Below, piece after piece: positions 1-18,362 of a DNA stretch of 18,362 nucleotides. Each line of letters starts with the position of its first letter. The first letter of the stretch is position 1. The notes below the pieces were generated by a model, which saw only the letters and a list, made by a program, of their open reading frames with translations, was not told the DNA's origin and did no database searches. Position numbers and translations under genes: made by a program. The stretch is taken from positions 1 through 18,362 of the forward strand of contig JBJCIZ010000722.1 of the NCBI GenBank assembly GCA_051294375.1. Direction: 5' to 3'. This stretch comes from Paraspadella gotoi (Eukaryota; Animalia; Chaetognatha).

Positions 1-374
1 TTCGGGGAGGGAGCTCGGTTCGTTGAAAATGTCTCCGGTCATTGTTCTCCGTTGTTTCTTTTTTCTTCCTCAATTTTACGCCATTCTCTAATTGTGTTTC
101 TTCCGAATCAGGCGCAAGTTAAAAGTTTATTATAAATTCTATAAAATATGGTTTTTAATTCCGAAAATATCTGTATCAAGATTAAAAATTTCTTTAATTA
201 CATACGGTTATTCGTTACGTATGTTATATTATTGGAGAAAAAACTCGTCGCTCCGAAAAATCGGTATTTCCTCGGTCCATTTGCGATGAATTTCGTTCCC
301 AAGAAATTCGTTTGCAATGAATATTCCCGGTTTATGTCGACGAGGCCGATTTGAAATCTCGAGATGGAGGCGAA

Positions 375-450
375 CGACGACGACGAGCGAGACGACGACG
401 ACGTAGACGTACGAACGACGACGACGACACGACGACGATCGACACGACGA
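375..450. repeat. Imperfect (GAC)n trinucleotide repeat
   Basis: Seen directly; a (GCG/GCT)n run follows at ~549-577. Confidence 0.8.
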
Positions 451-1026
451 ACTTATTTCCCTACGTGCGGTCAAAAGCCCTCCCTCCGTCAGATCTATGT
501 AATTAAAAACGTAGAATTGGAGACGGTCAAGCGGCGACTATTAATGGAGGCGGCGGCTGCGGCGGCTGCGGCTGCGGGAGCGTGGGCGGTCGGGTTTCTC
601 GTAGGTTAGTCGATGGGGAGACCGAAGAGCGGATCGGATGGTTGAAAGGTTGAAATGAAAAGTGGTAAGGCGGAATCGTGAGTGGAGATTAGGCGTTGTG
701 ACGTCCCGAAGAGACTCGGGTAGAAAGACGTGGGCAAAAAAAAGTGGGATTTAAACATAACTGGAGCTAAGAAATAATAGTAAGTTAGTGAGGAGGAAAA
801 GAGGAGGATCAGCCGAAGTTGGAAAAATCTCACAGTGTCGGTGAAAAGGAGGGTAAAAAGAGGAGACAGAAACCAAGTGAAACTGCTAATAACTGAATAG
901 AAAGAGTGAACTACTTATCGGTTCGTGAGAAAATGGATCTGGAATTATCTTTACTATAAGTAAAATCAAATCAAACGGATAATCTACGAAATAATATAAC
1001 ATCGAATATGAATCAAATGGCAGCGA

Positions 1027-1368
1027 ATGAGTGGGAGGTGGGGAGAGAATGGAGTGGAGAGGAAGGAAAAATTAAAGGAAGAGAAAAAGAAGAATTGCGC
1101 GGGAAAGACGATGAGTGGAGGAGGTGGGAGAGAATGAGGAGAGGAAACGGGAAAATAAAGGGAATTAAGAAAAAGTAAGAATTGCGGGACAGGACGAAAT
1201 GAGTGGAGAGGTGGGAGAGAATGAGGGAGAGGAAAGAAAAAATAAGGAAGAGAAAAAGAAAGAATTGCGCGGAAAGGACGAAATGAGTGAGAGAGGTGGG
1301 AGAGAATGGAGTGGGAGAGAAAGGAAAATAAGGAAGGAAAAGAAAAAAAGAATTGGCGGAAAGAGAAA
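1027..1368. repeat. Purine-rich minisatellite, 4 degenerate copies of ~84-88 bp
   Basis: Units start ATGAGTG at about 1027, 1111, 1199 and 1283. Each has GAGGTGGG(G)AGAGAATG...AAGAATTG; copies differ by many small indels. Confidence 0.85.
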
Positions 1369-1472
1369 ATGACTTTGTACTTTCGAGTTACAAAAAAAAA
1401 TTTTACCACAGCTACCAATAAATGCAATTATCTCATTGTTATTGTCAGGGAGGTTTTTTTAACATTTTATAT

Positions 1473-1640
1473 CTTTTTCTTTTTTCTTTTTTTTCTTTTT
1501 TTTTTCTTTTTTTCTTCTTTTCCTGTTCTTATTCTTTTCTTTTTCTTTTTCTTTTTTCTTTTCCTTTTCTTCTTCTTCTCTTTTTTCTTTTCCAATCTTT
1601 AACATTTTTTACTTCTTCTTTTTCCATTTTTTCTTTTGGC
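1473..1640. repeat. Polypyrimidine (T/C) low-complexity tract
   Basis: Near-continuous TTTTC-type runs. Confidence 0.85.
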
Positions 1641-1735
1641 GAACGTGGGCGGAGGCTGAACGCCGAGTTCATCGAGGATTGAAAATCTGAATGCATCTAG
1701 GATGCGGAAAATGTTGTATTTTGCGATGATACTCT

Positions 1736-1787
1736 ACTCTCTCTCTCTCTCTCTTTCTCTCTCTCATTCTCTCCTCCTCTCTCTCTC

Positions 1788-1822
<35 letters not shown>
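1736..1822. repeat. (CT)n microsatellite, imperfect
   Basis: Seen directly. Confidence 0.9.
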
Positions 1823-1825
<3 letters not shown>

Positions 1826-2017
1826 CTGTCGATCATCTGACATAATAATACAAATAAACAAGGAGATCTGCTCTCAAAAAAACAATTATGATGATTAAAA
1901 AAAATGCCTGGATTTCCATAATATTATTTCTGGAAATCTTTTTTAATTAGTTATAGCCACAGCGTCCTTAACAAATTGAACAAACAAACTAAAAACTAAA
2001 CTGCTAAAACGGAGACG

Positions 2018-2045
2018 AGTAGTAGTAAAGAGAAGGTGCCAATTG
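2018..2045 (+). other. Candidate left terminus (start of terminal inverted repeat) of the Polinton
   Basis: AGTAGTAGTAAAGAGAAGG resembles the 5'-AG/(AGT)n simple-repeat ends of Polintons and lies ~310 bp before the first gene. The matching right TIR is not in the window. Confidence 0.4.
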
Positions 2046-2330
2046 GGACAGTTTTGAATTTTGAAGAAGAAAAGGCAATTTGTGTTAGAAAGCCTTTTGT
2101 TTGAGTTTTAAAAAGTTTTTCTAAGTTTATCGGGCTAAATCGAGCTGACAGGGAAAAAAGAAATTAGTTTTAAAGATCTTTTTTTTTCTTTTCTAAAATT
2201 TTTAAATTAAAAAACATCGGATCGATCTCAAGCATAAAATGCGTTAAAACTTTTTTTTTTTTTTTTGATGAGTTTTCTTGTGGAGCTGTTAGATATCACT
2301 TTTTACTTAATGTAAAAAGTAGAATTTAAA

Positions 2331-2750
2331 ATGGAAGAATTTTCTAACATGTACGGAAAATCGCAAGAGAAAAATGTAATTTTACTATTTTCAAATCGTA
2401 TCAGTTGTGTAATGAAGTAAATAAACACAACCCATGTTTAATACAAAATCTTCCTTTACAAAGGAATTATACAATCAATTCTGAAACTATTCCAACTCTT
2501 CCTTTAACATCGCATAATAATATTCTAATGGGAACTGTCATTGCGCTTATTTTGCTTATTGTGATTATTGCGGTTATAACGTTTTGGAAATTCCTCGATA
2601 AACTAGTGAGTTGTGATCTTTTGTTTTTTTCAGTATCATTTATATAGAACTCGTTTAATCGTATTTCAGAAAAATGAACGACGTCTAATTAACACAGAAG
2701 GTCACCTAAACGAAGCCTTTGAACTCACAGAATTTGGAGAAGAAAGGTAA
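2331..2750 (+). pseudogene. Short paralog of the membrane protein gene with a frameshift near the start (pseudogene or assembly indel)
   Basis: The frame from 2348 reads HVRKIAREKCNFTIFKSYQLCNE, against RIAREKCHFTIFKSFQICNKE in the minus-strand gene. Both starts share AATTTAAAATGGAA, but ATG 2331 is 1 nt out of frame. TM helix, intron 2606-2669 in the same post-TM position, then KNER versus TNER. A possible further exon at 2804-2848 is also out of phase. Confidence 0.65.
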
Positions 2751-2880
2751 AACAAAAAAATGATTATTTATTTAAGATTTTAATTACAAAATAAACATTT
2801 TAGGTGATGGTGGCATTTGATGAATCAGAGGTCGTTACTTCGATTTAAAGTGTCTCGGAATGGTGAAGAAATTTCTTTTT

Positions 2881-3326
2881 TTAATGTCTTTTGCTTTTGT
2901 TGGGTTGTTGAAATACACTGGTAAATAAATAGAAGAATAGTTTTATTTTCTAATAAGAAGATTTATTAAATAAATCGTAATAAGATAAACATATTTGTTT
3001 ACCTGACTGGTTCAAGATAGTTTTCTTCTTCGTTTTTTTCTATTATGTCCTCAGTATGTCCTACCGCAGATCTGTCGCTACTGTCATTGTCGTTGTTGTC
3101 GTTGTCATCAAACACACTGTGGAGTATTTAAACATTAATTAAGCAATTTTTGTATTATTAAATTTCAATTTTTTTTACCTTCGTTCAACGAAACCATCCC
3201 ATTCTAAACTATCAATTTCTTCATAATCGTTTTCTTCAATAGTGGAGTTTTGTGCGATGTGAGTAGTAACTAAAAATATCATTGTATTTAAGTTAGACAA
3301 TTTAATATGTGTAGCATTAGTAAAAA

Positions 3327-3371
<45 letters not shown>

Positions 3372-4430
3372 AAAAGAACTAAATATTACTTTGAGATGGC
3401 GAGGAAAACGAGGTCATAGCGACCGACGGATTTTCTAATGTGAAGGGGGCATTCCGTAACTCCAATTCTTGTCGCCGTCTGATTGCATCATTAAAACGTT
3501 TATTTCGCCAAACCATAACTCGTTCGTTGGTCTTTAAAAAAGGGAAATTTATGTATATAAAATCAGTAATAAAATAAAGATGAACGTCTAGATATTAATT
3601 AATAAACTTACAGAGTTACGAAGAAATTTTTTGATGAGAAATCCGGCGAGTACGACGATTACGGCGAGTACGGCGAGTATGGCGAGCGCTGTTATTGAGG
3701 AGGCTATAATTGTCACATTTCCGATGGCAGGAGTTATGGTAAGGTTTGTATTGTTTAATTCGGATTGATAGGTTGCCGTTGTATTTGTTAAAAAAGGTGT
3801 CTTGATAGTGCTTGTATTCTTCAATCTGGATTGGTAAGTCGCAGTCGTGGTTGGGAAAATCACATTTGTAGGGAAAGGTGTTTCAGAAGGGAGAGTCTGA
3901 AAAGGGACTGGATTAGGTAACGAGTTCGTTTGCGTCGATGAGAATAGAGAGAGAGAGAGAGAGGGTGAGAAAGAGTGTGAGAGAGTGTTAGTGAGAGGTG
4001 AAAAATTTGAAATTTCAATTTTATTTTCGTGAAGTGTTAATTCCGATGGGAAGGTGAAATGTTTATAATCGCTTGAAGAAGATTCATTGAGAAACGATAG
4101 TGTTTGAGTCATTTTTAAATCATTCAAATTAGTTTCTTTAGTAAAGGGTTCAATTATATAACGAGTTGTTAGAGCTATATTTTTCGTATTATCAGAGCAA
4201 AGTGACTGTGTGAGAAAAGAAGGTGAAATTTCGTTTGATGAAGAGACAAGATTCGACGACGAATCAATCGAGTCAGACTTAGTTTCCGTGGGTAAAGTGG
4301 AAATGTTTAAGTAATTTAAAACGCAATTATTTTCGATTGTCTCTTTATTACAGATTTGAAAACTTTTAAAAATTGTAAAATGACACTTTTCTCTCGCGAT
4401 TCTGATACAGTTTTTTCTCAGTAATTCCAT
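2881..4430 (-). CDS. Mucin-like single-pass membrane protein with tyrosine-motif cytoplasmic tail, ~400 aa, 5 exons (4430-3612, 3531-3390, 3269-3179, 3116-3003, 2917-2881)
   Basis: 4-Cys N-terminus, S/T/P-rich stalk and TM helix (ITALAILAVLAVIVVLAGFLI-KK). Donor TCT|GTAAGT at 3611 and later phase-compatible introns give the tail TNERVMVWRN...ENDYEEIDSLEWDGF...EEENYLEPV-SVFQQPNKSKRH*. If the last intron is unspliced the protein stops at 2999. Confidence 0.75.
3330..3367. repeat. (GA)n microsatellite inside intron 3389-3270
   Basis: Seen directly. Confidence 0.9.
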
Positions 4431-5080
4431 TTTAAATTTTATTATTTGTTCCTTCAATATGAGGGCTCGTTTATTGTTTTTTTGACTAACAAAAAAGCTA
4501 GGTTTTAAAAAAGAAAAAAAACCCTTATCTTACTAATAAATGATTAATTGCTTTCCACTTCGGTTTTAACTTTATTTAACTGAGTTTTCTTTAAGAAAAG
4601 GACTAAATTTTTAATTTTATTTAGAGTAGTGAGATTAAGGAGGTTTCTGTTTCCACTTAAGCATTTTCTTTTTTCCCTTCTCGTTAGATAAAATCCATGA
4701 GGAATGATCTCGTTAGTGTATTTGTGACTTCACTTCAGTTTTATCGTTCTTTTTATTCTTAATTAAAGCAGATGTGTCTAACTCGAAATTCCTAAAATAT
4801 TTAACTTATTAAGCCAAATTTCATATATATATATTTATCTTCATTAAATCCGAAAATAAAATTGAGTTACGGAACCAGGGAAAAATAAAAGATCATTTTT
4901 ATTTGCGAAATTATTTATTTAATAATAAAAAGTTCGGTTGTATTTATAAACTAAAATACATTCTCAAATATCAATGGTTTTAAACAAATAACTATGGAAG
5001 AAAAAATGAAAGTCAACTCGTTGTGTTATTTATTAATAGATAAGGTTAAATCATCATTTTTTCGTTTTTTTTTTTTTTTA

Positions 5081-5341
5081 TCATTTTTTCTTTTTTTTTC
5101 TTCTCCTTTTTTGAGTAGCGAACGAAGAGGTCACTCTCCTTCTTATCGTCGAACCGCCCTTTGAAATATGACAAATGAAACAATCACTGGTTAGTCGATT
5201 TTATTTATTACAATTCGTTTTCTATACCTTTCTTTTTTTTCGTCTCCTTCGTCTCCCACGTCGGCGTTCTCCTGTTCTTCGTCGTTTTGCAGCAAGTTCT
5301 CGCTGAAGCGTAGCCAGATCGATATTTTTTGAGGTGAACAT
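5081..5341 (-). CDS. Arginine/lysine-rich protamine-like putative core protein, 63 aa, 2 exons (5341-5228, 5158-5081)
   Basis: MFTSKNIDLATLQRELAAKRRRTGERRRGRRRRRKKRK|GGSTIRRRVTSSFATQKRRRKKKKK*. The 69-nt intron AAG|GTATAG...GACTAAC...TCAAAG| has a canonical branch point. 30 of 63 residues are K/R. AATAAA follows at about 5034-5029. Confidence 0.75.
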
Positions 5342-5345
5342 TATT

Positions 5346-5546
5346 TCAGTTCAAGATTTGTATTTTTTCAATTTGATTTTTTTGATTTGTTATGTTGAAA
5401 TCAGTCAGATTCCCGTAAAGAATCGGAAATTTAAGTGAGAGCCAATTTGAAATAAGCAGACTAATAACCGCTATACAAATGAGCAGTTTCCAAAAGTAAT
5501 TTTTAATTTTGATTATAAAAGATGAGTTCTCACTTATATTTTGCAT
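5346..5546 (-). CDS. Small single-pass membrane protein, 66 aa
   Basis: ATG 8 nt after the protease stop. Hydrophobic helix FWKLLICIAVISLLISNWL, with basic residues before it and N-glycosylation sequons NLT and NIT after it. Confidence 0.55.
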   Translation of the reverse strand: MQNISENSSFIIKIKNYFWKLLICIAVISLLISNWLSLKFPILYGNLTDFNITNQKNQIEKIQILN

Positions 5547-5554
5547 TCTGTAAA

Positions 5555-6097
5555 TTATAAATGAAACATCTTGATAACACTCCTTATTACATGGTTTTCA
5601 ATCGTTTTTAAAGAATATTTAAGTAATAAAGTTTTTAATTTAAAAAGATAATTCATGTTTTTATTACGAGAAAATTTATAAACATGGTAGAGTATATGGA
5701 ACCCACAAGCTTTTGAGACATCAGTCTGAGATTTTAAGTGTAATCTTTTTAAAGATAAAGAATGTTTAGAGCAGAAGTCGATAATGGATTCATTTACATG
5801 CGGAAAATCTTCTCCCAATCTTTCCAGGGGGTCAATTATTACAGCAATATTATGTACAAAATAAATACACAGTAATAACCAATGACCGATTTTATCATGT
5901 TGTGATTCCGAAGAACTCAAAGTATTTATGATTATTGCAAGTCTATGTTTTCTTTTATTAAGGTCAATGTTGTATAATTCGTCATAGGAGAGAATCAACT
6001 TTCCTTTTAAAGTTCTCATGTAACTCAAATTATCTTTTTTTAAAATTAGTTTTAAGTCATTGTCTGAAGTAATCAAGTCGTTGTTAGTGAAATCCAT
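5555..6097 (-). CDS. Adenain/Ulp1-like (clan CE) maturation cysteine protease, 180 aa, intronless
   Basis: Catalytic pattern IINT...IGHWLLL (His), IIDPL (Asp) and SQTDVSKACGFHIL (Gln...Cys). The first ATG is at 6097; the ORF-track start at 6148 is TTG. Confidence 0.9.
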   Translation of the reverse strand: MDFTNNDLITSDNDLKLILKKDNLSYMRTLKGKLILSYDELYNIDLNKRKHRLAIIINTLSSSESQHDKIGHWLLLCIYFVHNIAVIIDPLERLGEDFPHVNESIIDFCSKHSLSLKRLHLKSQTDVSKACGFHILYHVYKFSRNKNMNYLFKLKTLLLKYSLKTIENHVIRSVIKMFHL

Positions 6098-6131
6098 ATT
6101 TTCTTTTTTTAAGTTATAAAATTGTGACAAG

Positions 6132-8370
6132 TTATTGTTCAATGTCAACTGATTGAAAAACCAATCGATTGGATTTCACTATCAACGACCTGGCTTGAGT
6201 GAAGATCACCGTAGCGTTAATGACATAAGTTGTCGGTTCTTCAAAACTTAAATAAAGACGATATTCATTCGCGGGATTTATTGTTGACTGTAACGACTGT
6301 GAATCGTTTAAATTCACGTTATTTATTGAAGGTGAAATTTTAAAAGGTAACATAAATTTTGAGTTTAGGAAGACTTCGCGCGTGAAACTTCCGGTACCCT
6401 CCCGGTTTAAGAATCCTAATGTATCAGCGACATACAAATATGACGCTTTTTTTGCCCACTCATCGACAAACGAGTAACCATCCACATCACCTATTTTATT
6501 TAGGAATAAAACAAAAAAATATTTTTTACTCAGTAGTTGCATTTTGTTTATACAAAAATTATAGTGTTACCTGAATGTCCAAGTGGTAATGAGGGTATCT
6601 TGGAATTTACGCCGATCTCAATAAACGCCCGTGCCAATTTATGTCGTTTGAATTCATAAAACGAGCTTTGATAAGTACCATTGTACTCAGTGTTCTTATG
6701 TAAGATCAAGATGGCAAAGGAAAAAGGATTCTTTAGGGTGAGTGTGATGAATTTGTTTGTAATTCCTTTCACGATAATATTAATTATTATAAAATTATAA
6801 TTAAACAACAAAATTAAAAAATAACAAGTTTTACCAGTTTCTATTGAGTAGACCTTGGCGAATGTAGCCTAGGTAGAGAGAGAAAGAAAGATTTTTTATT
6901 TTTATTTTTATGCATACACATTTAAATAAAAAAAGATATACATTGTAATTTATCTGGATTGGTTTTGAATTTAAAGAGCTTTCAATTTGTTGTAGTAAAT
7001 TCGGTCGGAGGAGAACGAGGTTGGCGAATAAAACACATTCTGATAGTGAAAAAAAGTAATTAATTTATAATAATATTAATAATAATAATGATAATAATAA
7101 TATTAATAATATTAATAATAGTTATCAACCTTTGACTTTGAATATTGGTTTTAACGCAGTGTTTTGTGTGTAGAAATATCTTTCAGCTGAGAAAAAGAAG
7201 GACAAAAAAATAATACTACAATATGCTATGTTTTAGTATTATTTAAGAGACTTACGATTTGTCAGGTAGAATTGAAGGGTTATATCAAGATTATTTGGCA
7301 ATAAACAATTCATAGTTGACAAAGGACTGAAAAAAAGTAGACGAAATCTTAGTGCTTTTTTGTTAAGCAATAAAATTGTTCTTTTTCCATTTTCTCCTTT
7401 CGGAATCTGTTTCGTTACTCCTGCTATCGTTTTAGCTTCAAAATAGCTCGAGACATCGGTGGACACTGTGTCTTTTTTTAAACAAAAAAGGAAGAGGTAG
7501 AATTAATAATTATGTATATTGAATGTATATTATTTAAACATTAATAAACATATATACTTACCATCATCTTCTACAAAATATTCAAATTCTCTTAAAAAAG
7601 ATTTTTTGGCAGCTTCTGAATATTTTGTTATATAGTTGGTGCGAGCTATGAGGCTGTAATTCGTGTCGTACTAAAAAAAGGAAGAATTCCCTTTTTTTTC
7701 CAAAATTTATTAATTAATTAATTAATTAATACCTTAACTAATTGTGCTTGTCCTACGTTCAAATTCACACTATCGAACAAACCGTGCCCCATCAAAGGAA
7801 CACAAGAAAAGTCTGTATTAGTTAAAGCTGTGCCATCTGAATTTGTAACTTCAATTTCTATGTCCAAAAAAAATCGGTGTGGATTTAAAAAAGCAGTTTT
7901 TTCGTTGAACCTAAAACTGATCGCTCGACCGCCTAGAAATTGATAAAAAAAAACGTATTAGTAAATAAATAATAAATAATAAATATCAAATAAAACAAGA
8001 AGCTCACCTTTTGAAAGTTCAGTGGTGTCCTCTTATCCGTAAAGAAAGAAAATGAAAAGAAACAAAATAATAACTGTCAAGAGATTATTCAGAAATTGAT
8101 CTAAAATAAAAATACTCATCTATTATTCTTTTCTTTCACGTTCGTCACCTGGATTGACTCTTATGTATCCTGTTTTTAAAAAAAAACTTTCATCTTGTAT
8201 GTATATATATATATATATATATTAGACAAAATATTTAATAGTTTACCATTAAAGAGACAACCATCTTCGAGATACACTTCATTATTCAAAAGTGAAGTGA
8301 TTTGTGGTGTGGTGATTGTTGTTGGTGTAGCAAAAGTCGGCATATCTCGGTATCGGATACTTTCCGCCAT
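6132..8370 (-). CDS. MCP: Double jelly-roll major capsid protein, ~476 aa, 11 exons (8370-8247, 8169-8149, 8031-8008, 7932-7733, 7670-7562, 7465-7256, 7186-7130, 7039-6942, 6868-6835, 6765-6571, 6490-6132)
   Basis: Ten GT-AG introns of 62-117 nt, all phase-compatible. The product shows Polinton MCP-like segments: ISFRF...FLNPHRFFLDIEIEVTNSDGT...HGLFDSVNL; YITKYSEAAKKSFL...FVED; LLPNNLDITL; LRPNLLQQIESSL; YNGTYQSSFYEFKRH...IPSLPL; FMLPFKISP...YRLYLSFEEP. An alternative in-frame acceptor at 7472 adds 2 aa. Confidence 0.9.
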
Positions 8371-8410
8371 TTTTCTTTTTTCGCCTTTTTTATATTCCTC
8401 TCCTGTTTTT

Positions 8411-8722
8411 TCAGATAAAGTTGTGAGGGGTGACTTTTTGTTTTTTCTTCTTTCCTTGAGTGGATTTTAATTCGTTATCTGTTTTATTAGGCGGAAGTTT
8501 TCTTTTTCTGGAATCAACGTTATTTTTATTGTTGTTATCTTTTGCAGGTTGCGTCTCTATCCTTTTTCTAGGTGTCGCTTCGGTCTGTTTAAAGACAGGT
8601 TCCTGTGCTTTGCTATTTTGTTGATTTTGAGATGCAGCGAAATAAGGAAGCAACAGTGATGTAATGTCTGAATTGAATCCAAATTTTTGCTGCTGTTCTG
8701 GAAGTGAATTATACCAACTCAT
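8411..8722 (-). CDS. Small basic low-complexity protein, 103 aa (position of Maverick PW/core-like protein)
   Basis: ATG-initiated ORF that fills the gap between penton and MCP. Q/N-rich with basic clusters (RKRK, KKKKQK). Function is inferred from synteny only. Confidence 0.65.
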   Translation of the reverse strand: MSWYNSLPEQQQKFGFNSDITSLLLPYFAASQNQQNSKAQEPVFKQTEATPRKRIETQPAKDNNNKNNVDSRKRKLPPNKTDNELKSTQGKKKKQKVTPHNFI

Positions 8723-8766
8723 GATCTAAAAAAAAACCCAAAAAAATCAAATCAAAACAAATCAAA

Positions 8767-10362
8767 TCAAATGTCGTTTAATGAAACTGGTCTAAATGAA
8801 ATACCGAAATAGATGAAGGTTTTCTTTGGAAAACAAATCAAATTAAAATATTCATCTGAAATTTTTATTTGAAAACCACCAAAAATTAATTTTCCTTGTT
8901 TTACTCTGTGGAAAGTATGTCCGTCTTCTGAGTTATTTTTATTTTTGCAGATAAAACGTCTTAAAATATCATACTTATTAATAGTTTGCGAATAAAAAAC
9001 ATTTAAATTCGTGAAACTCGTATTTTCTAATCTAAAATCATCATATCTGCATTGATTTATAGGTAAATCAGACAGAAAGTGAATAGTTCTTGGAAAAGGT
9101 GTAACTTCAAATGGCAAAAACTCATTGGCTTTAATCCAGTGATATTCTTCTTTTCTTTTCTTAACCTCAATCGGTGAGGTATCTGAATCTTGCAAAGAAG
9201 CAGTTTCTTTAATTTGATTTGTGACACTGAGTACCAAGTCTTTACCCCGTTCTGCCCCTAAAACTTGAGAAGTTTTATTGTTAAAATGAATGTTTAGTTC
9301 AATTTTATTGTCAATTTTTAAAAATTCATTAAATTTAGAAATGAATTTACATTTGTTTTTCGTTTCATCCAAGTCTAGTTTTATTATTTCATTATTATTA
9401 TTATTGTTATTATTATTGTTTTGAGTTGGTTGAATATGTTTTAAAATGATATTTGAAAGTTTTAATAAATCCACATTGTCTTTTCTCATTTGTTTTAAAA
9501 TATCAATACTTTCTTTTGTAGGTTTGTCCCCTACATCATCAAGAATCAAAACTTCTAGGTCTAAAAGCCATGATTCTATTTCTTTAGTTGCAATATCCTT
9601 CAAACTTTTATCAGTCTGTGATAAATCTTTATCATGCAGTTTATTACAGTCAATTAATTTATGTAAAACTAATTTCCTTTCTGTCATCGGTGTTAAATAT
9701 TTAGATTCGTTAACCAATTTTGTTTCTTCAGCTGCAGAAATCGCTGTGTTATAATTCCATTCAATGTCGTCGTCTGTCTTTTCATTTAGATACGTGTTGA
9801 AGGATTCATGCAAAATTTTTCGAAAGTAAACAGTACAATCCAGATACCATTTCAATATTTTAAAATCATCAGTTGAAAAGTTTAGTACGTTGTCGTAAGT
9901 AGTGAATTTTAAAATATTCATATTGACAAGGTCAAAGTCAGCAACTAAAGAAAGTGTTCTTAGTATTATATACTTTTCTAAATTGTTATTTAAAACTTTG
10001 TTTACAAAAGTAATAGCTTTTTTTGATTCTGTCATTGTCAAATCATCCAAGGATATAGCCATATAAGTATTGTTACTAGTTAAAATTTCATCTGCACCAT
10101 AATTCTGATTAACATTGGTCATGGATACTGGGATACGAATATTTACATAAATTTCGTTTTCACGAGTAAATGAGAGGGGAAGACTAGTAATTTGAAAAGT
10201 GTCTAATGCCATTTCAGCTAAGGGGCTCTTAAATTGTAAAAGACTTTGAGAAAGGTCAATGTGACTATCCAAGTTAAAATAAAAATTACTTGCGGTGGAG
10301 ATTTTACCCTGGTGATTTTCTTCCATCACTCTATTTGAAAGGTTAAGAGTATAAATACTCAT
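8767..10362 (-). CDS. Minor capsid (penton, single jelly-roll) protein, 531 aa, intronless
   Basis: The N-terminus (IYTLNLSN...TASNFYFNLDSHIDL...EMALDTFQI) and C-terminus (IHFLSDL...FHRV...FQIKISDEYFNLICF...FGISFRP) match the recalled Polinton penton pattern. It lies between INT and MCP. Confidence 0.75.
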   Translation of the reverse strand: MSIYTLNLSNRVMEENHQGKISTASNFYFNLDSHIDLSQSLLQFKSPLAEMALDTFQITSLPLSFTRENEIYVNIRIPVSMTNVNQNYGADEILTSNNTYMAISLDDLTMTESKKAITFVNKVLNNNLEKYIILRTLSLVADFDLVNMNILKFTTYDNVLNFSTDDFKILKWYLDCTVYFRKILHESFNTYLNEKTDDDIEWNYNTAISAAEETKLVNESKYLTPMTERKLVLHKLIDCNKLHDKDLSQTDKSLKDIATKEIESWLLDLEVLILDDVGDKPTKESIDILKQMRKDNVDLLKLSNIILKHIQPTQNNNNNNNNNNEIIKLDLDETKNKCKFISKFNEFLKIDNKIELNIHFNNKTSQVLGAERGKDLVLSVTNQIKETASLQDSDTSPIEVKKRKEEYHWIKANEFLPFEVTPFPRTIHFLSDLPINQCRYDDFRLENTSFTNLNVFYSQTINKYDILRRFICKNKNNSEDGHTFHRVKQGKLIFGGFQIKISDEYFNLICFPKKTFIYFGISFRPVSLNDI

Positions 10363-10389
10363 TTTAACTTATCTTGAAAATTCGCTAAA

Positions 10390-11932
10390 TTATATTATGT
10401 ATTTTTCTTTGTCTGCACTTTTGAAGTGGTCACTATAGGTGACAATTTGTCTACCGAGTAACTTAACGTAATTTTTCAAGATATGCGGTAGGATTTTTTC
10501 TTCTTTACCCTCCTTTTCTATCGTGTATACAATAGTTTCAGGACCAGGTAAAATTCGCCCTGACCTAAGCAACTTCGATTTGTCAATCAAAATTTCGACG
10601 TCTTTTACAAGAATTGGTGGATTATTTACATTTTGTGGTGATGTTTTGTTTGATTCTGCGTTATCTTTGTTTGCAAACCCAGTCTGTTGAGGCACTTTAA
10701 TTAATTCAAAGTCATAAAATTTCCTTTTTGAATCATCAAATTCCTTCAGTTTATATCTCAATGGGAAATAAATTTTGTCAATTGATTCTATTGTAAAAAC
10801 TCGTCTAGAGAAGCGTGGATAATAAACGGAAGCTTCTTTTCTTATTTTTCGAGGGATCAATTGGAGAAAAACTCGGTCTCCTTCATTTAATTTTTCTTCA
10901 TTCGGAATTTTAGAAAATATACTTTTAGCTTTTTGTTGATGATTTTGGAATTGTTCTAGTCTTTTTTGTAAAACAACACTTTGAGCGTGCGTATCAAATT
11001 GGATTTCGAATGGAGTGAAGCCAAAGCCAGACTTCAATTTTCGGTGATTGTAAGTGTGTTGTACAAGCTTAAAAAATAAAAAAATAAAAAATAATAAAAT
11101 GCTTATAGATAGGTAATTATTAGAGAAAAAACCTTGATTATCTTTTGGTAGTTGAAAGTCTTGAATTCGACCATGAAACGAAACATTAAAGCTTTAACTA
11201 AATAATCAGAATTAGTATTAGTAAATTTAATAAAAAATTCAATAAACAGTTTAATTAATTACTTGTTCTCACGGCTCGTTCCACGATGGAGACTTTAGGC
11301 CAAATAGAAGTGTATGTAGTATAAGGTTTAATATTTAATTTCCGGGAAACAAAATCCAAAAGATTTCCTTTAAATTCCGCCCCCCTTTTCGGTGAAAAAA
11401 AGAAGAAAATGGTATGTATTATGTAAGGAATTAAAAAAAAATATATATATATTTACCTATCACTTAAAAAATATTTAAATTTTGCTCCGCGAAAATCCGT
11501 TTTTATAGCTTTGATAAAATTTTTAAGTGTCGCAGCTGATTTAGCTGATTTTTGAGTATGTAAACTCACGAAGCGACTATTAATATCGATTAAAATCAAT
11601 ATAATTTGTTTACCTCTATTGTGACTTTGTAATTGAGGTAAAAAAGCTAAATCACCAGCGATAATGTGATTAGATTTAAAAGTAATATACTTTCGAAAGG
11701 AGTGAGCTCTTCTTCCTTTCAGTCGTCTTTCGTGTCGTTCACGACTCAGACTCTCTAAATGACTTTTAAATTCCAAAATTTCACGCGTCGTTACATTACG
11801 TAACCCACTATAAGTTTTAGCATTTTCATAAATTTGTTTAGTCGATTTCTGCAGGAATAAGGGAGAATTGAAAGTTCGATAGAGACGATGAAGGATTTGA
11901 AATCGTTTCTTCTTTTCCTTTTCGTGTGACAT
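10390..11932 (-). CDS. int: Retroviral-like (rve) DDE integrase of Polinton type, ~446 aa, 4 exons (11932-11457, 11384-11263, 11197-11133, 11067-10390)
   Basis: The spliced product has IAGDLAFL...LILIDINSRFV, LSDR|GAEF and SIVERAVRT|IK, with exactly 35 residues between the second D and the E. It continues YNHR...GFTP and has the Polinton-type C-terminal segment GDRVFL...FSRRVFTI...YKLK...FYDFELIKV. Introns are 72, 65 and 65 nt, all GT-AG. Confidence 0.93.
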
Positions 11933-12001
11933 GACGAATATTACATACACAAAAATGACTATGTGTGAAAATAAAAAAATAAAAAAACAAAAGAAAACTC
12001 A

Positions 12002-13336
12002 TTATTTTTTACATATTACTCGAATCGCTCTACATGGGATATCTTTCAGTTTTATATTAGATTTTGAGCAAATCCGAGTCAGTAAATTTTTTTCACAGTT
12101 CTTAAACGCAGCGACTCTTCCATTTAAACTTGAAAAAGATAAAAACTTATATATTTGTGATCTTGTAAGGCTTAGACACGCTAAAACCTTTTCCAACGCC
12201 ATTCGACAGTCCTCTTTTCCGTTCTTTTTAAATAAAACGAGATAGTTTTCTTTATGTTGAAGCCTGTCATCCTGATGAATCGTGTCAATGATGTTTTGTA
12301 GTTGTCTCGCCCGTAACTTAATGTTTCTCTTTGTAATTCCGTCAAGTTTATCGTCATTACATTTAAATGCCTAAAGGAGGTTTCGAGAGAAAAAAATTAA
12401 ATGACTAGTATATTTATTGATTGAATATTAACAGTATCTTACCTGAATTACGTTTAACCCAGCAATATTTACAGAAACTTTTTTTTTGTCTCGGTGAGAA
12501 CGTTTTGTTGGAGACTTTTCTCTTTGGTTAAGGAGGTTATTGGGGGGGAGTTGATTCATGTCATTGCTATCAGTTGCGTCATTATTTTCTTCTTCTTCTC
12601 CTTCCTCAGTGTATTCTGTCTCTTTCCCATTCGCCATTTCATACCCCTGGTGTGGGTCGTCATTTTGTTCATCATCGCTGTCATCAACTTCATAGCTAAT
12701 TGTACCGCTGTTGCTGCTACTTGACTCATCAGAGTCGCTACTGGACTCTGTAGAACTGTGAGGTCTTTCGATTCGTTGGTTTTTCGTCATCATCATTTCC
12801 AGACTCGATCCCTCTCCAGCACCGATAAGAGAGTACTTGTTATGTGGAGGTAAAAGAGAAGACTTGTCCAACAAAACCATACGATTTTGCCAATTTATAA
12901 TTTCTGCTCTTATCAGTTCGGATTTGGTCTGGACTGAAAAGTCTTTGTTACGTAATATATTGTCAATGGAATGGTGAAGACTTTCCTCGTCATTTTTAGT
13001 CACCGTTTTCCTCGTATTATTTTCTGTCAGTAGTCCACCCTTTTTGTCAGTCATTTTTTCTTTAGTCTTATCATTATCTTTTTCATCATCTGTTTTTTCA
13101 TCTAAGTTAAAAACCTGCTTTTTCATTTTGTCTTTTATTGAAGTATGGTTTTCATTATGATTATTATCATCATCAGCAAAAGATGTCGTCGGTAAATTTT
13201 TGTCGTCCTTTCTGTCACCAGATGAAGATTTCTTTTGTTCATCCAAAAGTCGTAACAGTAACGTCAATATATGAAGGAAGTCAAATTCGTTGATTATAAA
13301 GTGCCTATTAAAAAGAAAGAAGGAAAAAAGATTTTT

Positions 13337-13392
<56 letters not shown>

Positions 13393-13512
13393 CATTGATT
13401 ACCTATAAACATATGGGGAAGGTGAAATCAATTGACCAGCCCTTTTTGAAGCGGATTTTTGTAAATCTGATTTCACTAGTTTCAGACGTTGTAAATTTTT
13501 TTCTGAAATCAT
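12002..13512 (-). CDS. Hypothetical protein at the Maverick PZ position, ~446 aa, 3 exons (13512-13403, 13304-12443, 12370-12002)
   Basis: ATG 13512 (MISEKNLQRL...). Introns 13402-13305 (AG|GTAATC...AATAG|, contains (CT)n) and 12442-12371 (CAG|GTAAGA...TTTAG|) join ORF fragments 12428..13267 and 12002..12202 in frame. Acidic/Ser-rich centre and basic C-terminal domain. The PZ label rests on synteny only. Confidence 0.7.
13340..13389. repeat. (GA)n microsatellite inside intron 13402-13305
   Basis: Seen directly. Confidence 0.9.
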
Positions 13513-13625
13513 ATTTTATTACTAGAAAAAAGGCGAATACAAAATATATTTCTACTGAAAAAAGAAACAAATGTGAACAGTATTTATTCAATTACAATTT
13601 TGAGATACAAATAATTCAATTTGAA

Positions 13626-14165
13626 TCAGTAGTTAAAATGTAAATGATGTATGGCACGTATTGGAAAGTAATTCCTAAAATACATAAAAAACGACCTGTA
13701 TTCGTCTATAGGAACATCACTTCTATTTTTGTGAATAATCTTTAAGACCTCGTATCTACATAATCGAAACAATGAAATGGGCAATCTCGAATTAAGTGAA
13801 TCGAGATCTGGTAGTAATGGAATGGATCCCATATGAGTAAACTTGATCGTTAGCCCCACCCCTGGATTGCTAAAATTGACGTACAATCGAAAATCGTCAT
13901 CTGGCTGTGAATGAAAACCACCCTCACGTTTAAAAACGCCCTGCCAATAAAATTTATTTTGGCAAGGGTTCTTAGATTCAAAGGCAATGTCACAGTTGCC
14001 TGTAATAGAATCTATTATAAACGAGAGGTTTGTCAAGTCATTAGAATTAATACTAGTCGTAGAAGCGGCTGCTAAAATTGATTGGATTGTTTCTTGATCT
14101 GTGGTAACTGACGAGGCCTTCCACCAGGGATCTAGTTCGCTCTCTCCGGTTGCTGGATTCGCCAT
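13626..14165 (-). CDS. Hypothetical protein (179 aa from ATG 14165; may extend upstream through intron 14284-14209)
   Basis: Complex, globular-looking ORF MANPATGESELDPWW...HLHFNY*, followed by AATAAA near 13588. The upstream acceptor TTTTTTCCCAG| (14209) and donor CAA|GTACGA (14284) are phase-compatible with an upstream Cys-rich frame. Confidence 0.6.
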   Translation of the reverse strand: MANPATGESELDPWWKASSVTTDQETIQSILAAASTTSINSNDLTNLSFIIDSITGNCDIAFESKNPCQNKFYWQGVFKREGGFHSQPDDDFRLYVNFSNPGVGLTIKFTHMGSIPLLPDLDSLNSRLPISLFRLCRYEVLKIIHKNRSDVPIDEYRSFFMYFRNYFPIRAIHHLHFNY

Positions 14166-14236
14166 CCTCAGATGTATATGGTTTAAATCCGAAGTGCGCT
14201 TGGCAAATCTGGGAAAAAAGTAGTAACAAAACCATT

Positions 14237-14237
14237 C

Positions 14238-14280
<43 letters not shown>
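14237..14280. repeat. (ATCA)n microsatellite inside intron 14284-14209
   Basis: Seen directly. Confidence 0.9.
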
Positions 14281-14281
<1 letters not shown>

Positions 14282-14323
14282 TACTTGGAGCATGGTATGC
14301 ATCTATCTTTATCAGGGATCGAG

Positions 14324-14450
14324 TTATTCAGGCAGTGTGCAACGTCGTCTCGATAACTTGTCCAAGTCTTTTGGCAACCCGGAAACTGACATGAATTAAA
14401 AAAGGTAAGAAAATATGAGTAAGAAAAAAAAAAAAAGGGTTGAGAGAAAT

Positions 14451-14509
<59 letters not shown>

Positions 14510-15526
14510 AAAGTTATATTAACGTACGATTGGCTAAATAACTGGCACGCCCTCTCATGAAACCAATTGCCATTGACTCGTGAGCAATTCTACGTTGACG
14601 CATGACTTTTCCACTTTCTTAATAAACAGGGAAAGGGTGGGGTGGGAGTGGAGAGAGAGAGAGAGAGAGAATATTGAAATAATATTAGCAATAGTTATAG
14701 TAATAATAATAATAATAATAAATAATAAGAAATTCGAAGTACCTCGACAGTGGCAAAGAAATGGAATATGAGCTGGTGTAGTGTGAACGTCCCTCTCATA
14801 TTCCACGGGACTGTCCTTTACATGACCCGTGACGTAGAGACGACATTTGTCTGCAACTTTCGACGGATCTGACCAACGATCAAACCAGATTCTTTGAGAC
14901 AAACGACCAGTTTCGGAAGTTGATGCATCGAGATCCATCCTGACGATGGTAGAATTAATTAATTTTAATTTAATATATATATATAATATATATAGTAATA
15001 ATATATATATAGTTACCAGTTTGAATTGTGTAAACTGTCTTTACGACGACATCCTTTTCGATGTTTGTTGCCGCATTCACTCTTGAATTCCTCCCTCAGC
15101 TCGTTAAGGACCTCTGACTTGGGACTTAAGAACCATTCCATGGTTCGGAGTGTATTTGGGGCAGAAGCGACACGAGCTGAATACGGCTCTTTTGGTCGAG
15201 TTAGTCCCGAATTATTGAGGTGACGAAAAAACTCAGCCTCTCGTAAAATCCAGAACTGTTCTCTGTAGTCGTCACTGTAAGCCTCGGCGGTGCACTCGTC
15301 GATAACTCTTTGAGCCACACGCTCCTCGTTTCCCTCCTCCACATATTCGGTGAACACTGTAATGTACATACATACATTATGTATAATCGTTAATTCTTTT
15401 TAAAGTTTTAACGACTTTTGCAAATGGTTCGTTCGTACCTCGCTCACTGATGTCGGACATCAGGCTCATAGAAGGTAACGAAATCTGAATTGTACATCGG
15501 ACCGGCTTCTTCGGTCGGATTTCCAT
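14324..15526 (-). CDS. Hypothetical Cys/His-containing protein, ~258 aa, 5 exons (15526-15439, 15356-15017, 14939-14743, 14617-14528, 14385-14324)
   Basis: Phase-compatible GT-AG introns join ORF-track fragments 15013..15369 and 14555..14938 into MEIRPKKP...SER|VFTEY...NSN|WMDLDAS...LCHCR|ESGKVMRQ...LAN|LSGLPK...PE*. The 3' end is ambiguous (see findings). Confidence 0.55.
14443..14509. repeat. (GA)n microsatellite inside intron 14527-14386
   Basis: Seen directly. Confidence 0.9.
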
Positions 15527-15578
15527 ACAAAACGAGGATCAGCAACGGTGCGAGAGGTGATTGGGCTGGATAAATTCG

Positions 15579-16719
15579 TTAAGGGCCAATATCCTTGTTC
15601 TTCCTGCGAAGCACGAAACCCACCATCTGTGAAAAAATTGGGGGGGGGGTAGGAAGGGGGGAAAAAGTAAGAGGAAGGAAGATAAAATAATAAAAAAAGT
15701 TTGCTTTTTTGTAATTTGCATTAACACTAACACTTCCTGTATTTCTAAGTATAACGGTATAATATAACACTCACACAACGACTTTGTGTCCTTGTCGGGA
15801 TGTTGGGACCTGGCAACTTTGTCAATTCCGTCGACTGTAACCTGTCGGTATCGTTGAAGCATTTTTGAACGTGGTCTTCATTTCGACAAATTCTGTGGAA
15901 GGCCGCTGTACGAGCGGAGGAAGAGTGAAGCTTGACGATGCCGACTTCGAAGCTGCTCCAGAGAGATGCCATTTGAATCAATTGCTCCGTTGGTAGATCG
16001 TCAGTTGAGGTCGTTTGAAATTGGTTAAAACAATTAGTTGTTTTTTTCATAACCTCACTAGGATTTATAGAAATGTTAAAGCAATGAATAAGATGTTTGT
16101 CATCTTGAGTCAGTTCGCTTAAACTGATTTCTGATACGTAGTTGTCGCAAATATGCAGAGTTTTCTCGCCCGGCAAGTGAGTCAGGCATTCATCTTCTGT
16201 TACGTGACATGTGATTCGTCGCTTATTTTTAACGGCGCAGGTCGTTTCGTCGCTGGTCCGTCCGCCGAGAGCCAGCGTGAGTTGAGAGTTCTTCTCTGAG
16301 ACCGATTCCTCATAGAGTTTAAGAAATCCTGGTAAGACGATCGTCGAACTTGTACTAGCTCTTAAGTGAGGTAGGTGTGACTGAGAAGCCAAGTGTTGAT
16401 TTTCGAAATAAAATTCGTCCATCCCGGCTAGTTTCAATGGGAAGAAACCGGAGACAGGAAGAAAATTGTGTCGGGACTGTGTTGGGTAGGAGTTGATAGT
16501 ATTGAAAACACGATCCCTCGAGCTTGTAGGAGTGATGCGTTTTAAGGTAGTAATAGGAGGATCTAGTAAAGGCGCTAAAGGTGCTGGCAATCGACCGCTC
16601 TTTAAAGCCTCTTCAGTTTCCTTCGGGAATGGAAAAAAAGAATCTTTGGGATGATTTTTTTTCTTTTGTTGCATTTTCTTACGTTTAACTTGTAAATAAC
16701 CGTCATTATTTTCCTCCAT
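15579..16719 (-). CDS. Hypothetical protein, ~330 aa (exons 16719-15775 and probably 15626-15579)
   Basis: Long ATG-initiated ORF with a basic N-terminus (KRKKMQQKKK). Strong donor TGT|GTGAGT at 15774 and acceptor TTTTTTCACAG| at 15627 give the C-terminus MVGFVLRRKNKDIGP*. The unspliced form stops at 15745. No family recognised. Confidence 0.65.
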
Positions 16720-16759
16720 TTTTTGTTTTTGTTTTTTTTTTGGTCTCTTTTTATTTTAT

Positions 16760-18362
16760 TTACTCGGAGTCGTGAGAATACGAGAGTATTGTTTGCGGGA
16801 GAAAGGGAAATGAGGAATTTTCTCTGTCCAAATTATGCAAATTCGTCCTTAATAGAGAGAAAGAAAAAAAAAAGAAAATGAAAATGAACAATTGTTTTAT
16901 TCATTTCTTTCATAAAAAAAACAAAAAAACCTCATTTTATTCAATACCTGTATTTTAACGAGTCGAGGCTTGAATTGTTATTGGCGAACACGAGGTAAGG
17001 AAACTTGTGACGAATCAATCCGGCGTCGGTTTCTACGTTTTGCGTGGCGGCGTTGAAGGCGGACTTCAGCGAGACATACTCGTCTCCGCTTGTGAGTGAG
17101 CTTAAATTTGAACGTGATTCAGCGGATAAGGTCTTAAAAAAAAAGAAAGTATTTTGATCTATTTTAATGCGTTTTAGCGCCGTGTTAAGAAGCCCGGTTC
17201 CGTTTTTCGCGGAGGCTGAGGCTGATTGAGTAATAGTTATTGAATTGATGTTTAGGTGATGAGCTGACTGACTAAAAAATTCTAAGAAGAAATCGGTGAG
17301 ACGTTGTGCAATGGGAACCGCTCCTTTTGGACTTTCCTCTCGAGGAAAGTGACCTGTTGAGTGACGGATCAAAAACGCGTCATCGAATACACAGATAGAA
17401 TTACGGAGAAGTTCAAACTTTTTTTTCTTTTTCTTCTTTTTGTCGGAACTCTCATCGTTGTTATTGTCGTCGTTGTCGTCGTCGTCGTCGTCATTATCCT
17501 TAATCTTGTTAACGACTCGCTCGCTCATTTTCGTATTACTATCTCCCTCTACAGGGATGTTCTCTCCACTCTTCTTCTTCTTTTTCTTCTTCTCTGTTAC
17601 ATCCTCGTTCTTTTGTTTCTTGCTATTGATCGTTCTCGCTGTCGTTCTATCACTGTCCTTATCATCGTCATCATCTTTATCATCGTTATTGTCATCTCTT
17701 TTTCTCTTGTTTTTACTACTTCTTAAATTCATTGCATGAGCACCTCCCACGCTGCCGAATCCCTTCTTTCTAGTGGGCAGGTTAATCTCTCCTTTAGATG
17801 ATAGGGCTATATCACGCAATCTTTTGAGTGGCGGATCTTCCAAACGCAGCATCCTTTTAACAGCATCACCCGAACGGAATTTTTGTTTAAAGTAAAGGCG
17901 TCCATTTCCTCGTCGTGATTGTTGTTGTTGTTGTACTCTAGTAGCCGTTCTTGTGGAGTGACCCCTGAAACGACTTCCGGTTTTCCATATTCCGCTGCGA
18001 GCCAGTAACTTTTCGTTTCTAGAAAGTAGCGAGTGTTGCTGTCGTAGCCCTTGGTTTCTTTGTTTTGTCTTTCTTGTCTTGTCGGCAATTTTCTGAAGAA
18101 AACGCAAACAACGCTGTCCGCCATCTTCGTCTACGTTAACGTAGTCATCGTCATTATCATTGTCATCATTGTCATCGTCATTATTGATATTGTCATCATT
18201 GTCATCGTCATCATCTTCATCATCATCGTCATCAGTGTCATCGTAATCTGGGTTTAAAGTCTGTCTCCTAGATTTTTCTAAGGCTCTTTCGTACCCTTCT
18301 TGAAAGACTGGATTTAAGGCGCCTAAGGGTGATTCAAAGACTTCTAGCGGAACATTTAATTC
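16760..18362 (-). CDS. A32/FtsK-like DNA packaging ATPase (5' partial; exons >18362-16948 and 16847-16760)
   Basis: The frame is open from the window edge (ELNVPLEVFESP...) through Walker B-like NSICVFDD (~17380) and SQSAHHLNINSITITQS, which resembles the RH.N.S....Q motif of Polinton/A32 ATPases. Intron 16947-16848 (AG|GTATTG...TTAAG|G) gives ...YLVF...LKYRTNLHN...SE*, followed by AATAAA. Walker A is not in the window. Confidence 0.8.

Follow-up and report, generated by a model that had tools for sequence, protein, structure and literature searches.

A Polinton-type provirus of the chaetognath Paraspadella gotoi, the likely capsid gene of which is split by spliceosomal introns

Introduction

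Intact vertebrate Mavericks (Polintons) have been described without introns in their core open reading frames (ORFs) and with two modules on opposite strands (PMC8097293), and in nematode Mavericks the core genes were found intronless, with introns in the cargo genes (bioRxiv 10.1101/2022.07.12.499685), as far as the available passages of these papers tell. Viral genes were likewise assumed to be intron-free in surveys of endogenous Polinton-like viruses (PMC10120064 and PMC9356565), and endogenous virophages were reported without introns (PMC8547959), again according to partial texts. In this article we analyse a stretch of 18,362 nucleotides (nt) from Paraspadella gotoi (contig JBJCIZ010000722.1, positions 1 to 18,362; hereafter the window), which contains a Polinton-type element with many spliceosomal introns. 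The original prediction, made from the letters of the window alone, had taken it as given that Polinton core genes are usually annotated as single ORFs, and the passages seen from the two Maverick studies agree.

The element shares with the animal Mavericks of PMC8097293, as they appear in the passages at hand, the module order, a likely ATPase upstream of the gene in the PZ position, the 5'-(AGT)2 end and an accessory region adjoining the terminus. It differs from them in that four of its six core genes are broken up by 16 introns, in that a single strand carries both modules, and in that the penton has 531 amino acids (aa) with a large helical insertion. The closest precedent is the introner-bearing eupolintoviral elements of dinoflagellates, in which, according to the excerpts of PMC12166617, spliceosomal-type introns also lie inside integrated Polinton-like elements; there the introners were mostly acquired after integration, about 25% are coding and the intactness of the elements is unclear. 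Those introns belong to transposon families, whereas here no family similarity was found, 28 of the 29 predicted introns are inside coding regions and splicing was seen.

Short introns of GT-AG type, about 80 nt long and enriched in virion genes, are described in the passages on mirusviruses in PMC12768974 (4-22 per major capsid protein (MCP) gene in one family), and their concentration in virion (capsid) genes resembles the situation in our element. Mirusviruses differ in belonging to another realm, with an HK97-type capsid and genomes of about 265 kb; their top density in these passages is 0.62-0.65 introns per kb, compared to 1.77 per kb here, and in contrast to them no intron of the window is long enough for a gene. 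The Punuivirus endogenous giant virus (bioRxiv 10.64898/2026.10.09.758095) is similarly integrated and has host-style spliceosomal introns, but in the parts of that text available to us it is the latency genes that are marked by introns, the MCP gene having only a group I intron, whereas here the likely MCP gene is the most intron-rich one.

The passages returned from PMC12220804, PMC11296320, PMC10748475, PMC8502044, 10.64898/2026.10.13.758929 and 10.64898/2026.07.28.741278 contained no spliceosomal introns in Polinton genes. A full-text literature search, with Repbase, subscription papers and supplements outside its scope, so that a prior mention is possible, yielded no Polinton with RNA-backed spliced core or capsid genes. 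What is likely to be new is that the likely capsid gene of a Polinton-type provirus has spliceosomal introns with RNA support, the sequencing run concerned being only probably RNA.

Results

From position 2018 to the right edge at 18,362 the window holds a compact array of genes, nearly all on the minus strand, which opens with AGTAGTAGT (2018..2026, plus strand). This left end, the start of a presumed left terminal inverted repeat (TIR), fits the 5'-(AGT)2 end motif of Mavericks in the passages of PMC8097293; a terminal (AGT)2 or (AG)3 motif was seen at the left end only, and the 25 longest inverted repeats listed for the window include no right TIR. In the order of transcription a likely ATPase, the 5' end of which extends beyond the window, is followed by three accessory genes, the PZ-position gene, an integrase, the penton, a 103-aa ORF, the likely MCP gene, a protease, a small hydrophobic ORF, an Arg-rich protein and the membrane-protein gene TM1; its paralog TM2 is on the plus strand and adjoins the left end. 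The 12 genes from the ATPase through the Arg-rich gene are separated by gaps of 4-162 nt. The order integrase, penton, PW, MCP and protease matches the Maverick description of PMC8097293, a test which is not fully independent, because the MCP and PW assignments partly lean on that order. The core genes are all on the minus strand, unlike the opposite-strand modules of intact vertebrate-type Mavericks described there.

The intronless penton (minor capsid protein; 8767..10362, minus strand) was identified by its relatives and its predicted fold. A total of 101 relatives were found for it at E<=0.001, many of them full length (best E 7.8e-42, 30% identity), and the model calculated from a 63-sequence alignment had a pLDDT of 89.4. 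VIA-align ranked a PBCV-1 capsid chain first (Z 12.1, root-mean-square deviation (rmsd) 3.6, 145 aligned), followed by the mavirus penton (Z 11.8, rmsd 9.3, 249 aligned), Sputnik chain N (Z 11.5, rmsd 9.7, 271 aligned) and then an adenovirus chain (Z 8.7), and Foldseek against PDB placed the mavirus penton on top. The predicted fold thus corresponds to a single jelly-roll minor capsid protein, with the helical insertion at about residues 113-310.

The penton family (P0001-P0101) is unnamed, about 520-530 aa long, and shares this insertion. When 30 of the 101 clusters were looked up, all 112 members came from ENA or Logan assemblies, with a longest contig of 9,994 nt. A quick tree gave the penton of the window a long branch of unsure placement. 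The lack of introns in this 1596-nt gene has a probability of P=0.025.

The rve-type integrase (10390..11932, minus strand, 446 aa) contains introns 11385-11456, 11198-11262 and 11068-11132. Its first exon matches the IS481 DDE transposase with E=2.4e-4, a match far below that family's own cut-off, and Pfam rve with E of about 0.07. The D-D-E triad consists of D94, D158 and E194, and the D-E spacing is 35 with intron 1 removed and 59 with intron 1 kept; intron 1 is independently supported, because the DD(35)E spacing arises only after its removal. Since the penton fold, the DDE-transposase match, the order of integrase, penton, small ORF, MCP and protease and the AGTAGT left end coincide, the locus is a chromosomally integrated Polinton-type virus or element, as originally proposed.

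Altogether 29 introns were predicted, all with GT..AG ends: ten in the MCP candidate, three in the integrase, two in the PZ-position gene, one each in the ATPase and the Arg-rich protein, and 12 in accessory genes or untranslated regions (UTR); the penton and protease genes have none. The parser avoided stops, used generic splice scores with a GC term and was blind to RNA data, its start and stop points being chosen by hand. It returned these numbers for the MCP candidate (481 aa), the integrase (446 aa), the PZ-position gene (446 aa), the ATPase and the Arg-rich gene, as well as four introns for TM1, one for accessory gene A1 and four for accessory gene A2, and the total was reached after two introns of TM2 and one in a UTR had been entered by eye or from RNA. 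The original prediction of about 25-29 introns, with 10, 3, 2, at least 1 and 1 in the MCP, integrase, PZ-position, ATPase and core protein genes, was reproduced in this way. Its description of short AT-rich GT-AG introns of mostly 60-100 nt was also right: the lengths are 57-148 nt (median 77 nt; 24 of 29 within 57-100 nt), the pooled GC content is 0.225, and the introns amount to about 2.45 kb or about 15% of the element.

The likely MCP gene (6132..8370, minus strand, 481 aa, 11 exons) is interrupted by introns 8170-8246, 8032-8139, 7933-8007, 7671-7732, 7472-7561, 7187-7255, 7040-7129, 6869-6941, 6766-6834 and 6491-6570, with a GC content of 0.175 in the introns versus 0.367 in the exons; the donor of the second intron is uncertain, as are the accessory-gene models. 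Block-shuffled sequence with preserved local composition served as chance control (60 trials per setting, parsed in 19-26 of 60). The MCP parse with its ten introns scored +43.8, and the best null reached -67.5 (nulls parsed in 26 and 25 of 60), and the corresponding values were +13.3 against -46.0 for the integrase and +6.1 against -72.1 for TM1. After splicing all six core frames are free of stops, and the DD(35)E spacing of the integrase is restored across a junction. Eight of the ten MCP introns are in phase 1 (P=0.003 for an expectation of one third).

The donors have A at +3 in 24 of the 29 introns, and the exon ends are proto-splice-like (A at -2 in 21, G at -1 in 20). Ten acceptors, including two of the six seen as joints (below), end in AAG, which seems an unusually high share. 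Branch points, of which several had been claimed, are only partly confirmed: TACTAAY/GACTAAC occurs in three of the 29 introns (null mean 0.5, p=0.008), a pattern taken post hoc from the original prediction, and for the general CTRAY, found in five, no enrichment was seen over the null mean of 3.6 (p=0.28), so that the signal is weaker than stated. One intron with a boundary 1 nt off is included in these splice-site and branch-point statistics. No intron matched Rfam at gathering scores; self-splicing group I/II introns, structured ribozymes of several hundred nt, were rejected for this reason and from the lengths and the GT..AG ends.

Removal of the introns was seen in one public run of one study, X1, which is of low depth, contains 31% of the sampled words and was classified as RNA by a tool's guess. 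Its contigs were placed on 1-14960, a range which does not extend over the first two introns of A2 or the single introns of A1 and the ATPase. Among the eight joints in this range six had splice-site ends equal to predicted introns exactly: 2747-2803 on the plus strand (TM2), 2918-3002, 3117-3178 and 3532-3611 (TM1), and 6491-6570 and 7472-7561 (MCP candidate). Their orientation agrees with the strand of the gene in which they lie, and all five minus-strand joints had been predicted blind to RNA. The joints 577>3083 and 12208>13257, non-canonical with sides of 25-36 nt and probably false, were dropped. Two further introns, 3270-3389 and 14209-14284, are implied by contig arithmetic, the other 21 of the 29 being predictions only. 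Eight of the 124 X1 contig pieces were displayed, all of which lie inside exons or stop at exon borders; seven are identical to the window and the single difference of the eighth is predicted by a junction. It can be stated from the GT..AG ends, the donor consensus and the six exact joints that the introns are genuine spliceosomal introns of the major (U2) type, with a weak branch-point signal. Because transcripts of several genes appear with their introns removed, the element likely relies on the nuclear spliceosome of the host, a dependence which the original prediction had assumed and which the exact GT..AG removal, also in the MCP candidate, supports.

Comparison of the 406 pairs formed by the 29 introns showed that the top eight all involve microsatellite or homopolymer tracts, and microsatellites make up 22% of the intron bases versus 0.8% of the penton. 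The repeats at the junctions are 0-5 nt, without fixed length. Families of introners were rejected within this set, since neither a family of similar introns nor flanking repeats of fixed length were present. As judged from sequence, the introns look old rather than the product of a recent introner burst, because their mutual resemblance is limited to microsatellites and because these are so much denser than in the penton. Neither the presence of the introns in a whole lineage instead of this single copy nor their gain in bulk, both originally proposed, was established: without mutual similarity, a gradual gain long ago fits at least as well.

The 6132..8370 gene is likely the MCP gene from its module position, its length and motifs which we assume to resemble those of Polinton MCPs. 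Its exons, and read-throughs with stops written as X, gave nothing significant in Pfam, PHROGs, NCBIfam, PDB-sequence and ESM Atlas. Next to it, in the PW position of PMC8097293, is the basic 103-aa ORF (8411..8722, minus strand), also without a profile match.

The likely adenain-type cysteine protease (5555..6097, minus strand, 180 aa, intronless) has H72, D89, Q124 and C131, which we take to be the residue order of the CE clan. It matched Pfam RickCE_cat weakly (E=0.13), and 117 residues of its single-sequence model (pLDDT 42.7) aligned to the CE-clan structure 5haf_B (Z 5.8, rank 32). Word-index searches with the protease, integrase exon 1 and the penton alignment gave no match; the penton search missed its own members, so these searches have no weight.

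The gene presumably corresponding to PZ, named so from its position and an assumed resemblance, encodes about 446 aa (12002..13512, minus strand, by parse) with introns 13305-13402 and 12371-12442, and its product has a long acidic low-complexity middle. The likely packaging ATPase (16760..18362, minus strand) is an open 473-aa frame, still open at the window edge, with the predicted intron 16848-16947 and a Walker-B-like ICVFDD; no profile matched it, and we presume its resemblance to the A32/FtsK-type packaging ATPases. In-frame tracts of low complexity, rich in Asp, Lys and Asn, were observed at 17420-18240 in the ATPase candidate and at 12440-13300 in the PZ-position protein. The Arg/Lys-rich protein of 63 aa (5081..5341, minus strand), with the predicted intron 5159-5227 in the best of several parses, is likely a virion core protein as judged from its composition, and between it and the protease a small ORF that lacks introns and includes a stretch of hydrophobic residues was recognized in the sequence (5346..5546, minus strand).

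TM1 (2881..4430, minus strand) codes for a Ser/Thr-rich single-pass membrane protein of about 400 aa. Beside its three introns seen as joints, the fourth, 3270-3389, follows from contig sums (91=91 nt, 744=744 nt). TM2 (2331..2807, plus strand) is a small membrane-protein gene with introns 2606-2669 and 2747-2803. The two share a Cys-containing N-terminus (similarity 112 versus a shuffled maximum of 49). One of their introns may predate the duplication, as the sequence suggests, because both genes carry a phase-0 intron right behind the membrane helix. They are convergent, and one X1 contig spans both transcripts via their overlapping 3' ends.

The accessory region consists of A1 (15579..16719, minus strand, about 330 aa; predicted intron 15627-15774, with alternative parses scoring nearly as well), A2 (14324..15526, minus strand, about 258 aa; predicted introns 15357-15438, 14940-15016, 14618-14742 and 14386-14527) and ORF B (13626..14165, minus strand, 179 aa). 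The start and last donor of A2 are uncertain, and an exon sum of 728 nt against a contig of 725 nt is weak support. Intron 14209-14284 precedes ORF B outside the predicted coding frames, and an X1 contig piece stops at its acceptor with one junction-predicted mismatch. A single long gene over 16719-13626 was rejected for its negative parse scores and weak sites. In 13626-15356 a 1279-nt contig seemingly passes the A2 stop, crosses the intron outside the coding frames and enters ORF B; it is possibly a two-gene transcript or a merger of overlapping transcripts. Between the Arg-rich gene and TM1 there is a very AT-rich gap of 650 nt, of which 4540-5050 is possibly a promoter region or a decayed gene; a 61-codon stop-to-stop frame without a clear start lies within it (4544-4729, minus strand). 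In the host flank, at 1030-1370, a purine-rich unit of 83-87 nt is repeated in tandem about four times, in degenerate form.

Discussion

The explanation which we favour, and which we hold to be reasonably probable, is that of an integrated Polinton-type virus which relies on the spliceosome and acquired its introns in the distant past, its genes remaining functional throughout. The integrated copy would be transcribed by the host RNA polymerase II, and the major spliceosome would remove the short AT-rich introns. Polintons copy DNA to DNA, without a reverse transcription step, so a gained intron would never be erased and would be inherited by every daughter copy. Introns might ratchet upward in this manner, mostly at AG/GT-like sites, with selection holding the exons in frame, and their interiors would drift and accumulate host-type microsatellites. 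A benefit might be added: in human cells, introns work against the silencing that HUSH imposes on intronless transgenes (PMC8770142, in the passages seen), and by analogy they could disguise the transcripts as host genes, thus blunting the silencing of intronless foreign DNA.

Several points weigh against this explanation. Splicing rests on a single run of low depth, the RNA status of which was guessed, and its joints cover two of the ten MCP introns and none of those in the integrase, PZ-position or ATPase genes. The reading frame of TM2 is interrupted close to the 5' end of the gene, at about 2340-2350, and exon 2 of TM1 and TM2 shows no significant similarity (23 versus a null mean of 18). 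Locus scans of viral contigs, metagenome contigs, prokaryote genomes and phages revealed no second copy or related locus. The profile and structure check suggested with the original prediction gave a divided answer: the penton fold and the integrase DDE were found, while the MCP, ATPase and protease had no significant profile match. The same is valid for the supposed intactness, since the core frames in view are free of stops, but TM2 is frame-broken, and pPolB, the Walker A of the ATPase, the right TIR and the target-site duplication would lie beyond the window. It was observed separately that the frame-broken TM2 still has a seemingly spliced transcript.

A domesticated, immobile provirus, that is one old, fixed insertion the genes of which were kept for host use and gained introns as host genes do, would account for the old-looking, microsatellite-rich introns, the transcript contigs over many of the genes, the listed contig pieces which differ from the window by 0-1 as expected of a single locus, the long penton branch with no more than 30% identity to any relative, and the low-complexity insertions of the ATPase and PZ-position proteins. 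On the other hand, the AGTAGT end, the D-D-E triad and the tight packing were retained without obvious use to a host, and dozens of metagenomic relatives align colinearly with the whole of the penton. Because the end motif, the integrase triad and the packing persist, virus-like selection is favoured, and domestication seems to us unlikely, albeit worth serious consideration.

Much less credible is a recent burst of intron-generating transposons into a resident, decaying provirus. It has its precedent in the dinoflagellate elements (PMC12166617, passages seen), and it would suit the uneven spread, with the MCP candidate holding ten of the 16 introns of the core genes (P=1.3e-4), as well as the one broken accessory gene; the lack of any intron family, the best pairs being microsatellite-bearing introns, the variable junction repeats and the six stop-free core frames make it improbable. 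Finally, AT-rich insertions or assembly errors, with X1 being DNA that holds an intronless copy, would use the guessed RNA status and the artefactual fragmentation of such elements described by Bellas et al. (in the part of that work seen), but this idea is largely refuted and scarcely credible in view of the exact removal at GT..AG on both strands following gene orientation, the A at donor position +3 in 24 of 29 introns and the eight contig pieces confined to exons or their borders.

Returning to the integrated, spliceosome-reliant virus, a bolder extension can be proposed tentatively: the element could represent a still-mobile, virion-forming polintovirus lineage, fully dependent on the spliceosome, with an 11-exon MCP gene and more introns per kb than the intron-rich mirusviruses, and the approximately 100 penton clusters known only from metagenomes and read assemblies could be a large hidden clade of relatives, the other genes of which escape ORF-based virus discovery because introns split them. 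We regard this as somewhat doubtful.

It had been foreseen that such an element would be missed by ORF-based virus searches, and in fact no exon of the MCP candidate matched any profile. With its capsid gene in 11 pieces the element would be scored as degraded, or missed, by surveys that assume intron-free genes, thus estimates of the diversity of Polinton-like viruses and of the proportion of intact elements may be too low. The element is a compact test of intron gain and retention in a DNA-to-DNA replicator, and bears also on the contrast between an intron-rich major capsid gene and an intronless penton. Furthermore, the spliced capsid transcripts bear on the question whether the virion genes of Polintons are expressed autonomously in the nucleus.

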